A DNA stretch of 33,640 nt from Catajapyx aquilonaris. Lineage: Eukaryota. Below the pieces are notes generated by a model, which saw nothing but the letters and a program-made list of their open reading frames with translations, did no database searches and was not told where the DNA came from. This document shows, piece after piece, positions 4,736 to 20,000 of this stretch; the first letter of the stretch is position 1, and every line of letters begins with the position of its first letter. A program made the position numbers and the translations under genes. The stretch spans positions 1 through 33,640 of the forward strand of contig JYFJ02004251.1 of assembly GCA_000934665.2 (NCBI GenBank), read 5' to 3'.

Positions 4736-5753
4736 CTGAAAACATTTGGGAGTGGTTCAAGAAATTAGCTGCTGCCGTTTTACACTCGCAGTCTAAGTGC
4801 TAAGAGCCATTCCTTTCTTTGCTACCAGGCGATATAATTATAGGGGGAGTTGGTTATTAAAAATCCTACTCTGGTACTACTGCTAATTGCCTCATGCAAT
4901 TTCACTCGTCTGATACCAGGTCGATATGCCACTAAAACTTTTATTATCCACAAAAAAATGATGAGTGGCTGCAAAAAACTTTGGCTACATGCCCTAAGAA
5001 GCTCAGCTATGAGTTGCAGTAAAGTCAGATCGACTCATTATATTTTTAATAATTCCACGACGCTACTGCACGTTACAGATTTTTATGTCCACATCGCCAA
5101 GTCGTAATGTACCAGTAACTGTGAGATACCTGTCATTGAAAGAAATGGTCGTGTCATTAGCGAGGAAGTGCTATATTTGGCATTTTATAACATATCTGTG
5201 CTGCATGTGTGTGTCATTAGCCTTAGCCTATTTTAAAGTGATTTCGTGTGTATCAGAAATAAAAAGAATGAATCATGACCCTGGAATAAGTGAATTTGCA
5301 TATATTAATTCTGGAAAGCAACAGAATTAAACTCCAAAAATGTGTTTTAATCATCAAAAAAGATGCCAAATTAGATATGCATAGTCATTGATGACTCAGT
5401 AATAACATTCCAGGAGTTGATTCACTGTGCATGAACTTTGTACATGAGAGGCTATTGCACTTCTGGCACAGGTGTGCACCAGGCATGGAAAAATAAATAA
5501 ATAAATATGGTCATTATAACTCCATACATAATACTGCTGTGAATAACAAAAACAATAGTCACTTTTCCTACCAATACAATGAATAGTATAAATCTCCTCC
5601 ATAAGTGCATGTGACGTGTGTGTTAAAAAACCAAAAAATGCAAGGAACTTGTAAGTCATGGTGCTGAGCCGACTTTGGTTCCTTTTTGAAATATCATGGC
5701 ATCCGTGCACATGCATAGTCACCCAGGAGTCATACGTGCAATGGGAGAAGAGT

Positions 5754-5797
5754 AGAGAGATAGAGATAGATAGAGAAAGAGTGAGAGAGAGAGAAAA
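5754..5797. repeat. Imperfect (GA)n tract, read as CU-rich on the MICU1 pre-mRNA
   Basis: agagagatagagatagatagagaaagagtgagagagagagaaaa, immediately downstream (on -) of the candidate micro-exon. Confidence 0.8.
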
Positions 5798-5806
5798 GGT
5801 ATGTAC

Positions 5807-5818
5807 CTCTCCATTGCT
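5807..5818 (-). CDS. MICU1: Candidate 12-nt MICU1 micro-exon (SNGE)
   Basis: Minus strand reads ctattaatgtcctgtttgttctttgtcatttttgcag|AGC AAT GGA GAG|gtacat. Phase 0-0, matching the flanking exons, with no stop. Confidence 0.55.
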
Positions 5819-6310
5819 CTGCAAAAATGACAAAGAACAAACAGGACATTAATAGTTCAGTAAAAGTAGACACACTGTTTTCTTTTTTATCTTTTTTAAA
5901 AAGATATGTATGCGAAAAACGATGTTGAAGCCAGCACAGTTGCGTAATGGGCTTGCAACTGTGATGTATGATATTCAGCGAGCATAACATAGGGAAACGG
6001 GAGAGCAAAATATTGCAACATCAGCAATGTTAGTAAATGATTAGAAAGCTTGGGATATTAGGCACTGAAAATAAGAGGAAGTTTGGGACATACAAAAAAT
6101 CCCCAAAGCTCATGTGAAAACACAGGATAGTGGAGGACATGAAAGTTACAAACATGAGAAAAAAAAGGCTTGTAATAGTTTTCAATTGGAGGTATGTGTG
6201 TACGGGTCGACAGATATGGTACTCTACATGTGAGCCCAAGAGTGATTTACTGAGAGAGAAAGACTCTACTGTGAAATATGTAAGTTGATATGTATAGAGT
6301 TGAGGCTTAC

Positions 6311-16560: not shown

Positions 16561-16680
16561 ATGTCGATTACATTTTTACTATGGAAACAAGCCATGCGAA
16601 GAACGGATTCCACTGCTACACTGTAGTATAAAATATGCGATGTAATGACAATTTGCTGGTTGGAGAGAAAAAAGAGCAGG

Positions 16681-17065
16681 AAATTGTTCAAAATATTGAT
16701 GAAAAATTGCTGGGAATTGTTCTAAATATTGTTGAAAAATTGCTGGAAATATATTGTTCTAAATATATTGTTGAAAAATTGCTGGAAATATATTGCTCTA
16801 AATATATTGTTGAAAAATTGCTGGAAATTGTTCTAAATATATTGTTGAAAAATTGCTGGATATTGTTCTAAATATATTGTTGAAAAATTGCTGGATATTG
16901 TTCTAAATATATTGTTGAAAAATTGCTGGAAATTGTTCTAAATATATTGTTGAAAAATTGATGGAAATTGTTCTAAATATTGTTGGAAAATTGCTGGAAA
17001 TTGTTATAAATATATTGTTGAAAAATTGATGGAAATTGTTCAAAATATTGTTGAAAAATTGATGG
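16681..17065. repeat. AT-rich minisatellite, 11 copies of a 33-39 bp unit
   Basis: Consensus AAATTGTTCTAAATATATTGTTGAAAAATTGCTGG in head-to-tail copies with no unique spacers. Confidence 0.95.
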
Positions 17066-20000
17066 AAATCTGGTTCAAAAAGTGTTTCAACCATTGTTGA
17101 ATGAAGCTGGGATATTAAAAAATCGTAGCATGATATACAGGGCATTTATTCGGAAAATAATTGCATTGCGGTTCAATTTCAAGGGCGGAATAACGATGAC
17201 CTGCACATATATAATGCCGATTCTTAGAATTTCGGCAAAATGTAATGGCATACCTAGCCGGGTCGTTTTTTTTATAAGCGTGGCCATAACAATGCGAAAT
17301 TTGGATCAATAGGAGCGGGCGAGGAAATTCCTAAGTCGCTTTCAGCATTCTTGCTCCCTAGCTATGCGATGAAACAACAGTTTTCCGCGGGTTCCGAATC
17401 AAAAAAGTGCAAGTGTGAAATATGCGCGCGACTTTTAACCAGTCGTTGAAGTTTTAATGGCTGGTGATGCTTCTAAAAGTTTAATTAGCCGCTCGAAGTA
17501 TTACGAGCCGACAGCGTGCCTCGTCGGTTCCTCATTATTGCAACAGTAAAAAATATGCGGCTGGCATTATTTTGTCATGTCAGCAGAAGACGTAAAAAGT
17601 CATACTCGCATAGTCACATCACTCTCAATAATTGCAATCGGAAAAAGTTATTACAAACATAAACATTGACTATCACCTCACACTGAAGAATTACAGCGAA
17701 TTCAAATGTGTAGCCTTATTTACTCCCATGCCGAATTTGTGTACATTTTACACATAATTCATGTGCTAATTGCTTGTTAGCCACACTGTAGGCCCTACTA
17801 CTTTTGGATAATTGTTTAATGAGATCAATAATTGGAAACACTGCCCAAGCGTGTGTGGGTTGCCCATTAAGAAAGGTTTTCCAGTCAACAGCACTTGCTA
17901 TTAATTTCTCAGTAACACTTCTAATGCATTCATATTAAACTGCAATGCATATTTATCATATTTTATATTCAAAATTGAACAGTCATATTCAGACTCTGTG
18001 AACCAACACGTCATTTAAATTTCCTCAAGACATTACACCCTATACCCACTTCATGTTGAATCAGCACAATAATCGCATCAGTAATAGATCCTCTCAATCA
18101 TGTAATGCTCAAGGTAACCCCTTTTTTTAAAACAACCTATGTTATCACTCTTATCAGCATTCATCTAATCACATAATTGACCACGCTCCAATAAAAAAGC
18201 ATAACAAACGGTATCATTGGTATCATTAAAATATTCTGAAATGTACTACTGTACAGCAGGTGACGGTATTGCAGTATGACTCGTGAAATTACAACAGATG
18301 TGTCGCAATAAATTGACATTGCGCCTATTAGCTGCATGTAGGTGCTAGCTCTTGCATAAATATATCATAGCTAATTGTTAATCTGCAGATCATCTGATTT
18401 GCTTTGCTTGTGAAGCTTGTCAAAGCATTACACAACAATCATTACATAACGCCAAGTTAAAGTGCATAAAACCGCTTACAACTTGCTTACAAAAAGGTAA
18501 AGCCAAGTTCAACAACAGGCAATATACGCCCTGGGAGAAACGGCAAGAATTTTTATGAATGAGATAAGCAACAAACATGCAACTAAAAATGAATGAAAAT
18601 TTTACCATTTTTTTTAACGTCACAGTTTCATTTCCCATGAGAAATATATGTGGTAACATAAAGTGACTCAAACCTGTCACGTTCCCTTTTGTTACACCCT
18701 GCCCTTGAGATTTACCGCCTGTTTTTTTATGCAACAATTACTAAGCGATTCTCATCCACCCGGAAATAGTGGTAAGAATCACAGAGGTGAACTCAAAGTC
18801 ATCATTGCGAATTTGCAAATAAAGTTCTGGCAAATATAAACCTTATCATACAAAATTTCGCAGTCCCAACCAGCATAAACATCCGGCGTCAAAGAATTTC
18901 AAACAACTTGGAATCACTGCGCCCTGGTCTTAAAAATAGCGGTTTTAAAATAGCCAATTTAATCATAGGTATGTCATTTTCGGCGTTCCTCATGTGTCTA
19001 TTTTAAGGGCCCCATTCACACTTAAAAACCAGGCTCCAAAAATCTGCAACGTATCACTCAAGTGCCGCCCTAAAAAAAAATAGTCGCGGTTTTAAAATTG
19101 GACCTAAGTTCAAGGCTACAGGATGCGAAATTTTTGCCAAAAGAAATTGTATTTAAGTGCAAACGCCTCCCTGCAAATTCAAAGAAGCAAGTCAAAAAAT
19201 CCGATGGAATGTGTCCAACTTTGCAAAATTTTTGGCGCGACTCGACGTCGCCTAAATGCGAAAAGTGCAACAAGTCGGCCACAAATACATCCTTAAATTG
19301 ACGTAACACATGGGAACCATGTCCAAATCTGACCGAAAGCGTGACTACTGCGGACGCTCACCAGGTGGTGATGTCACGCCTGATTATAATTAGCGACGTC
19401 CGAGGAGTTAAAAGCATCGAGGTTAAACAGTGTCATTACCACCAATGCTACGAGTTAAAAGCACGTGGAGTACAGGACAGCAAATGGCATTTTACTGTAG
19501 GCACCAACTTGCCAAAATGAGGTAAAAAATTAGGCAAAAGTGCGAAAATGGAAAAAGACGCAGCATCGAAGCGACATCCGACGGTGAAGTGCAGAAGTAA
19601 GGAAGTCGCCACCCAGGAGGTGGCGCCGGAACGGCGGAAATGGGAATTCCGTGGAAAGGCCCCGGTCGGACTTTTTTGAGTTTTACAGTCATTCGGCACC
19701 GTTTCCAAAAAAACAAAAGTGGTTTGCAAATATAGAAAACACGGGCAAGATTTTGACACCACTCCCAACGCTGTAGGCCGTTCGGTGCGGGAGAGTTGCC
19801 ATGACAGTAGATTATTGGCTTAGGCGAATTCTACTCACGGTGACTCATCACCAACGTGCATGTAGTGCTACTTTTCCCCTGAGAACGGCAGCAGTGTGCA
19901 GAGAGCTAGTTTGTGCGCCACCTGGTAGTGTCAAGTTTTGGCAACTGGTTCTCGACCATTTCCAGTAATATTTTACTGTAATCTACTTATTAAAAATACT

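Follow-up and report, generated by a model that had tools for sequence, protein, structure and literature searches.

The minus strand of the window, i.e., of the whole 33,640-nt stretch of DNA analyzed here (Catajapyx aquilonaris, assembly GCA_000934665.2, contig JYFJ02004251.1), carries the 5′ half of an orthologue of MICU1, the protein that sets the Ca2+ threshold of the mitochondrial uniporter; the remainder of the gene lies beyond the window start. The intron between exons 4 and 5 of this gene (6310-4736, 1575 nt) contains the 12-nt element AGCAATGGAGAG (5818-5807), which encodes S-N-G-E and is probably a genuine, alternatively included cassette micro-exon. It is located at the junction where MICU1 proteins of insects and crustaceans have inserts of exactly four residues and where the vertebrate isoform MICU1.1 has the product of its own 12-nt exon. 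From these comparisons and from the genomic signals described below, we infer its inclusion in Catajapyx aquilonaris itself and the tissue pattern of this inclusion. All coordinates of the gene refer to the minus strand.

The candidate lies in phase within the host intron, from phase 0 to phase 0. Exon 4 (38 nt, 6348-6311) encodes ...GLGLDQFKRYDPK, ends in phase 0 with the codons GAT CCG AAG (D P K) and has the donor AAG|gtaagc; its counterpart in homologues reads GLGLDQ[FY]K[RK]YDPK. Exon 5 (115 nt, 4735-4621) begins with AAC CCT AGG (N P R), the start of NPREKLE, and is 80-97% identical to arthropod MICU1. In-silico splicing of the window exons with and without the 12 nt left an open frame with no stop codon either way. 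Of the features of a MICU1.1-type exon, the following were found in the candidate: the same intron, preceded by an exon with the end KR[FY]D[GP]K and followed by one with the start K[IL]SQ.. or N....LE.., phase 0, a length of 12 nt, a preserved frame, and AG and GT borders.

A branch-point-like TTAAT (5852-5848) matches the fly CUAAY consensus at four of five positions (consensus from the accessible part of PMC8797185), its second A being situated 31 nt upstream of the exon. It is followed by a U-rich polypyrimidine tract (5847-5821), the last three letters of which, TGC (5823-5821), abut the acceptor AG (5820-5819) in the sequence tttttgcAG (CAG|A). Sixteen of the 20 positions from -23 to -4 are pyrimidines, and the nearest AG upstream is at 5876-5875, which leaves an AG-free zone of 54 nt before the acceptor. 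The donor GAG|gtacat (5806-5801, GT at 5806-5805) agrees with MAG|GTRAGT at six of nine positions. In the downstream intron, a CU-rich tract of 57 nt (5799-5743) begins 7 nt from the exon, and a TGCATG hexamer (5715-5710) begins 92 nt from it. The first-pass annotation of this DNA, made from the letters alone, had named the branch-like element, the U-rich tract, the acceptor, the SNGE codons and the donor, the in-frame position between ...KRYDPK and NPREKLE, and the CU-rich and TGCATG elements downstream; all of them are present in the sequence, and the frame was confirmed by the in-silico splicing.

The same annotation had assigned the host gene to MICU1, which agrees with our homologue searches. 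The queries were exon B, one of two alternative 163-nt exons of the gene, and the stop-to-stop frame around exon 5; they gave 659 and 736 matches, respectively, at E ≤ 0.001. Hundreds of these matches, from insects and crustaceans, were named "calcium uptake protein 1 homolog, mitochondrial", and the highest identity to such named homologs was 89% for exon B and 97% for exon 5. The nearest exon identities were with Odonata, Ephemeroptera, Collembola, and Blattodea. The Ischnura orthologue (P0054) matched the human MICU1 chain 6k7y_I with E = 1.5e-147.

Four-residue inserts in pancrustacean MICU1

The exon-4/exon-5 junction was read in the 223 listed proteins from both searches, the sequences compared being representatives of 90% clusters. 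Both anchors flanking the junction were present in 173 of them; the remaining 50 were fragments or were divergent at the anchors. Standard spacing was found in 114 of the 173 representatives, exactly four extra residues after ...DPK in 30, and other lengths in 29. Among these 29, the differences of ±1-2 residues, and of +6 in one group, probably reflect lineage-specific lengths of exon 5 and not cassettes.

The following peptides occur as four-residue inserts. SAEE was found in Homarus americanus, three Penaeus species, Portunus, and one further transcript; NHAE in Ischnura, Hetaerina, Cimex, Halyomorpha, and one further transcript; NHDE in Homalodisca; and NHDK in Zootermopsis. Lepidopteran inserts were NIDE (two Danaus species) and NIGE (Hyposmocoma). 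HKLE was present in Photinus and one further transcript, HDFQ in two Tribolium species, HG[FLVM]Q in Dendroctonus, Molorchus, Diabrotica, Aethina, and one further transcript, and VRLH in Megalurothrips (thrips). The AFFQ of Ranatra was discounted: it resembles a translated intron end, as in the genomic open reading frame calls P0124 and P0126. With Ranatra set aside, the four-codon insert is present in 22 named pancrustacean species and 4 transcript contigs, and the taxa include decapods, odonates, bugs, a termite, Lepidoptera, beetles (seven species, H[KDG]x[EQ]), and thrips.

The inserts have a recognizable composition: in 28 of the 30, the first residue is S, N, or H and the last is E, Q, or K, the exceptions being VRLH and the doubtful AFFQ. 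SNGE, with S first and E last, fits this composition. It has S1 and E4 in common with SAEE, and G3 and E4 in common with NIGE; its final E, encoded by the GAG before the donor, is the commonest final residue of the inserts.

Eight species had distinct representatives for the insert-bearing and the insert-free form: Homarus, Penaeus japonicus, Tribolium castaneum, Zootermopsis, Danaus plexippus, D. chrysippus, Megalurothrips, and Molorchus. Contigs of 1653-2255 nt, which encode proteins of 475-549 aa (P0128, P0133, P0151, P0185), carried four of the inserts; contigs of this length with products of this size must be spliced mRNA. Since the four-codon exon is common to decapods and insects, it is probably old within Pancrustacea, and the exon of the window would be the local version of it.

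An arthropod four-residue insert at the equivalent junction, which the first-pass annotation had anticipated, was thus seen in 30 of the 173 representatives. Its further expectation, that gene predictors would miss such a micro-exon, did not hold: the NCBI isoform models (X1, X2, ...) of the 22 named species contain it. RNA-backed gene predictors do not miss the four-codon exon, and it is already present in many public gene models. As regards published descriptions, the accessible parts of the literature on MICU1 micro-exons and on Drosophila MICU1 splicing, in which the papers are vertebrate-centred, did not mention the arthropod exon.

Some of the homologues carry a longer insert here, of 14, 24, and 14+4 residues in Homarus, 22 in Palaemon, 27 in Panulirus, 19 in Schistocerca, 4+8 in Bicyclus, and 15 in Helicoverpa (P0143, P0198, P0200, P0222, P0176, P0059, P0100, P0106). 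One Homarus isoform combines the 14-residue insert with SAEE. Given these longer cassettes, the exon-4/exon-5 junction is a splicing hot spot.

Relation to the vertebrate exon and competing explanations

According to the accessible part of PMC8909990, vertebrate exon 5′ encodes EFWQ, is located between exons 5 and 6, and adds its product after residue 181; the resulting MICU1.1 has an affinity for Ca2+ about ten times higher, and less Ca2+ is needed for it to activate MCU. The same source describes a 6-nt exon 5″ in vertebrate MICU1, sites for PTBP, QKI, and RBFOX flanking exon 5′, inclusion driven by RBFOX2, and an insert-bearing loop that is unresolved in MICU1 crystal structures. In our searches, shark, frog, lungfish, and bowfin isoforms (named non-human entries) had DFWQ or TE directly after KRYDGK, and this vertebrate KRYDGK aligns with arthropod KRYDPK. 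In the HMMER alignment, the human chain has a gap of four residues facing the NHAE region of Ischnura. The equivalence of the window junction with that of MICU1.1, proposed in the earlier annotation, is therefore borne out by residue 181 (PMC8909990) and by DFWQ directly after KRYDGK in four vertebrate groups. Arthropod inserts of four residues at the vertebrate junction make the SNGE candidate credible and the proposed idea of an ancient or convergent tuning site reasonable.

The AlphaFold2 model of the Ischnura NHAE isoform, calculated from a 60-sequence alignment, had a mean predicted local distance difference test score (pLDDT) of 68.6 and a predicted template modeling score of 0.55. The insert occupies residues 214-217 of this model; residues 196-212 and 215-224 had pLDDT values below 50, and a nominal helix was assigned to residues 212-222. 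The low pLDDT around the insert fits the loop unresolved in the crystal structures (PMC8909990).

For the link with vertebrates, we favor a shared "hot-spot" phase-0 intron in a disordered linker, repeatedly hosting small cassettes, over an orthologous exon. Orthology, i.e., a 12-nt exon already present in the bilaterian ancestor, of which SNGE, SAEE, NHAE, and EFWQ/DFWQ would be descendants recognized by length and position, seems to us rather unlikely. The intron, phase 0, and the length of 12 nt are common to Pancrustacea and vertebrates (vertebrate data from the accessible part of PMC8909990). From one arthropod order to another, the peptide is replaced completely and only the length stays the same; in view of such divergence, dissimilarity to EFWQ is weak evidence against homology. 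An acidic-aromatic flavor is also present in some inserts (beetle HDFQ, oyster SEDF.., vertebrate DFWQ), and mollusc representatives show differences of 7-8 residues at precisely this point.

On the other side, SNGE and EFWQ/DFWQ have none of their four residues in common (0/4 identical), and the peptides therefore give no evidence of homology with the vertebrate exon. No insert was found in the single representatives of the centipede Strigamia, the hemichordate Glandiceps, the annelid Capitella, and the nemertean Tubulanus, and the inserts of molluscs, which differ from four residues in length, were deduced between species only. In the accessible part of PMC8797185, the rewiring of micro-exon programmes between flies and mammals is found to be almost complete, convergence is argued for most exons at shared positions, and only four exons at a shared fly-mouse position are given, MICU1 not among them. 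The broader proposal of a tuning micro-exon ancestral to Bilateria, with orthologous pancrustacean and vertebrate exons governed by the same Srrm-eMIC, Rbfox, and PTB logic, is equally doubtful. If orthology were true, a mitochondrial Ca2+-gatekeeper exon would join the very short list of micro-exons shared by arthropods and vertebrates, and Drosophila would have lost it.

The mollusc differences were observed in bivalves, directly after ...FDPQ (P0241, P0261, P0262, P0247, P0274, P0253, P0238). Mactra has KDNIAAL, which is absent from Mercenaria and Mya; eight residues are present in Ostrea, Saccostrea, and Mytilus but absent from Potamilus. This comparison between species suggests cassette exons at the same junction in molluscs.

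A chance pseudo-exon was considered next in order of probability: the signals at 5818-5807 would be accidental products of an AT/pyrimidine-rich intron, never spliced, in a lineage without the micro-exon, such as flies and Hymenoptera. We regard this explanation as unlikely. The 1575-nt intron contains 77 AG..GT combinations of 3-63 nt in multiples of three, of which 44 are stop-free. The 12-nt candidate is the best of these 44 and the sole one to combine at least 16 pyrimidines in 20 positions, a pyrimidine at -3, an AG-free tract, and a donor of at least 6/9. No other site of 3-27 nt on either strand of the window had these four properties (67,280 nt scanned). When the intron was shuffled with its dinucleotides preserved, a 12-nt site this good arose in 8 of 2000 cases and any site of 3-27 nt in 68 of 2000. 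The intron and the length of the candidate are, moreover, exactly those of the four-codon exon in 22 species and 4 contigs, and its last codon gives the residue with which the inserts most often end.

The acceptor, with 16/20 pyrimidines, is the best in the gene, in a tie with the acceptor of exon 4; the donor, at 6/9 by a crude score, is in a tie with three accepted donors of the MICU1 gene. The CU tract has no equal in the window: no other stretch of 50 nt or more, on either strand, reaches 90% pyrimidine. It was not called as a tandem repeat by Tandem Repeats Finder at a score of at least 50, and its uniqueness in the window shows that it is not a background microsatellite. On the side of a pseudo-exon, 23 acceptor-like sites of equal quality occur in the window (9 on the plus strand and 14 on the minus strand).

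Several facts weigh against a functional micro-exon at 5818-5807, and those concerning the donor, the peptide, the flies and Hymenoptera, and the thresholds speak for a pseudo-exon at the same time. The donor GTACAT is weak, lacking the consensus A at +4 and G at +5. None of the 30 inserts reads SNGE; neither the host species itself nor a near relative was among the matches, and the nearest comparisons cross orders. The four splice-signal thresholds were derived post hoc from the candidate itself, so the resulting chance figures are optimistic. The single TGCATG is near chance expectation: counted on both strands, the window has 38 copies of the hexamer, whereas shuffled sequence has 28.0 on average and attains 38 in 2 of 100 shuffles. 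At the resulting density of about 1 per 1.8 kb per strand, the chance of a copy within 100 nt is about 1 in 18. The four-residue insert was not found in any dipteran or hymenopteran representative; the absence in Diptera, Hymenoptera, Collembola, and Branchiopoda refers to cluster representatives only. With the exon lost in some lineages, that of the window could lack a functional copy as well. The equivalent Drosophila intron, in our own reading of the coordinates in the accessible part of PMC8797185, is only 56 nt long. In Table S2 of the same source, the mouse 12-nt Micu1 exon is labelled "ASE" and is not listed as eMIC-dependent or neural, while the mouse 6-nt Micu1 exon is labelled "Neural". 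Finally, Drosophila has MICU1 and MICU3 and is without MICU2 (accessible part of PMC6506686); the vertebrate mechanism, which involves MICU1.1-MICU2 dimers, is therefore not simply transferable.

For the Drosophila gene CG4495 (MICU1), Table S2 of PMC8797185 contains a 160-nt and a 163-nt exon with the same flanks, the latter labelled "Neural"; these two are the fly equivalents of the window exons A and B described below. According to the coordinates there, the following exon is inferred to be 38 nt long (7183778-7183815), and a 115-nt exon begins at 7183872; the sizes of 38 and 115 nt are those of window exons 4 and 5. The short intron between these two fly exons explains why work on Drosophila never saw an exon at this junction. 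The 9-nt eMIC-dependent micro-exon of CG4495 (flanks 7184203/7184615) is located two junctions downstream (PMC8797185, accessible part), and the window counterpart of its region lies beyond the window.

No other element of the intron was comparable with the candidate. The other 43 stop-free combinations had a poorer tract, an AG in the tract, or a donor of at most 5/9 together with a poor acceptor; the only other one of 12 nt (6223-6212, STIS) had a donor of 2/9. Thus, no convincing second cassette exon was found among the AG..GT candidates of the exon 4/exon 5 intron. A regulatory RNA structure was rejected for 5905-5700 (-33.3 kcal/mol, z = -0.18; equalled or surpassed by 79 of 200 shuffles), and so was an origin from a repeat or transposon, since self-BLAST of 5600-6000 against the window gave only A-rich matches of at most 22 nt. 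The Rfam scan of the window gave no match at the gathering score.

The weakest alternative, a longer exon with the same acceptor (5820-5819) and the in-frame donor TGG|gtgact about 96 nt further on, was rejected as highly improbable: the frame is open through the CU tract (open reading frame 5396..5848) and inserts of 14-27 residues occur at the junction in Homarus, Panulirus, and Palaemon isoforms, but the 32-residue product (SNGE plus a Ser/Leu-rich stretch) would be a low-complexity hydrophobic peptide unlike any longer insert seen, the proximal donor is at least as good, and a CU tract is a typical intronic element.

Host gene and neighboring features

Upstream of exon 4, the host gene has the coding part of exon 1 (16003-15759, ATG at 16003-16001) and exon 2 (160 nt, 11932-11773), the latter supported by a frame check. 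They are followed by two 163-nt exons, exon A (8815-8653) and exon B (8040-7878). Exons A and B are mutually exclusive because 163 is not a multiple of three, and the inclusion of both would shift the frame. They encode alternative IIEYENR...FMTP...QP segments, in which 36 of 54 residues are identical by count. Exon A-type and exon B-type segments were both observed in isoforms of one species, e.g., Portunus X5 and X7. Pfam gave no match on the single exons, which are too short.

A gene of the Sulfotransfer_2 family (PF03567) is located at 1027-2018 on the plus strand, opposite MICU1 and downstream of exon 5. Its two pieces, in different frames (E = 1.2e-12 and 3.6e-24, covering profile positions 64-126 and 128-252, respectively), are apparently joined by a GT..AG intron of about 63 nt near 1554-1616. 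Since the rest of MICU1 lies outside the window, this gene is presumably nested in the next MICU1 intron. A 35-bp minisatellite (16679-17069) with 11.2 copies and 91% matches was found about 0.7 kb upstream of the MICU1 ATG.

Regulation and comparison with known micro-exons

A 12-nt exon is too short for self-definition, and its flanks must therefore recruit the spliceosome. An element rich in U and C after a weak donor is a classic site for TIA-type help to U1 or PTB-type repression, and Rbfox proteins activate exons from a UGCAUG located downstream of them. In the candidate, inclusion would be set by the U-rich acceptor with its UGC, the AG-free zone, the weak GTACAT donor, the CU tract, and the UGCAUG at +92. 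By analogy, this arrangement appears to be of the kind used by tissue-regulated micro-exons under Srrm eMIC, PTB, and Rbfox-type factors, and inclusion may be regulated in neurons and/or muscle. That these particular factors control the inclusion can be proposed only tentatively.

The eMIC exons of fly and mammal have a UGC close to the acceptor, are preceded by a long zone free of AG, and end at a weak donor (accessible part of PMC8797185). The candidate has all three features (TGC at 5823-5821, 54 nt, and a donor of 6/9, respectively). It departs from the eMIC pattern in having UUAAU at -31 and not CUAAY, and in the position of its UCUC-rich tract, which is downstream and not upstream; the upstream tract is U-rich with interspersed G and is not UCUC-rich. 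In the srrm3 eMIC mutant of zebrafish, the inclusion of two micu1 micro-exons falls (accessible part of PMC13281805).

Inclusion of the exon would add S-N-G-E between ...KRYDPK and NPREKLE, in a flexible linker before the first EF-hand lobe, with the frame unchanged. By analogy with vertebrates, such an insert might act on the MICU1 gatekeeper in excitable tissues by shifting its affinity for Ca2+ or its threshold. In vertebrate muscle and brain, a micro-exon of four residues suffices to alter this threshold; as four residues are also inserted there in insects and crustaceans, the tuning site becomes testable in tractable arthropods, e.g., in Tribolium with HDFQ. With regard to annotation, 12-nt exons need junction-level evidence.

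Three known systems can be compared with the exon of the window. The neuronal micro-exons of the eMIC programme (Srrm234, SRRM3/4) are similar to it in their length of at most 27 nt, and MICU1 of the fly is an eMIC target; however, the 9-nt exon of CG4495 is not at the junction of the window. The four-residue isoforms of Pancrustacea share with the candidate the junction, the length, a first residue that is polar or small, and E, Q, or K as the last residue, its codon ending in AG; their inserts alternate with the insert-free form within one species, as is proposed for the candidate. They differ in being known from gene models and transcripts, whereas the exon of the window is known from genomic signals, and the peptide SNGE is new relative to their inserts.

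Vertebrate exon 5′ agrees with the candidate in the gene family, the intron after KR[FY]D[GP]K, the phase, the length of 12 nt, and the preserved frame. Both vertebrate exon 5′ and the arthropod insert are located in a linker that is unresolved or of low confidence, and pyrimidine-rich flanks are common to the two exons; a UGCAUG-type motif also lies near each, in the candidate a single copy that is close to chance expectation. Exon 5′ differs in its peptide, EFWQ in mouse and human and DFWQ in the sharks, frogs, lungfish, and bowfin compared, and its inclusion in muscle and brain, the gain in Ca2+ affinity, and the dependence on RBFOX2 were demonstrated experimentally in vertebrates. The vertebrate effect is described together with MICU2, which Drosophila lacks, and vertebrates additionally possess the 6-nt exon 5″ (TE).

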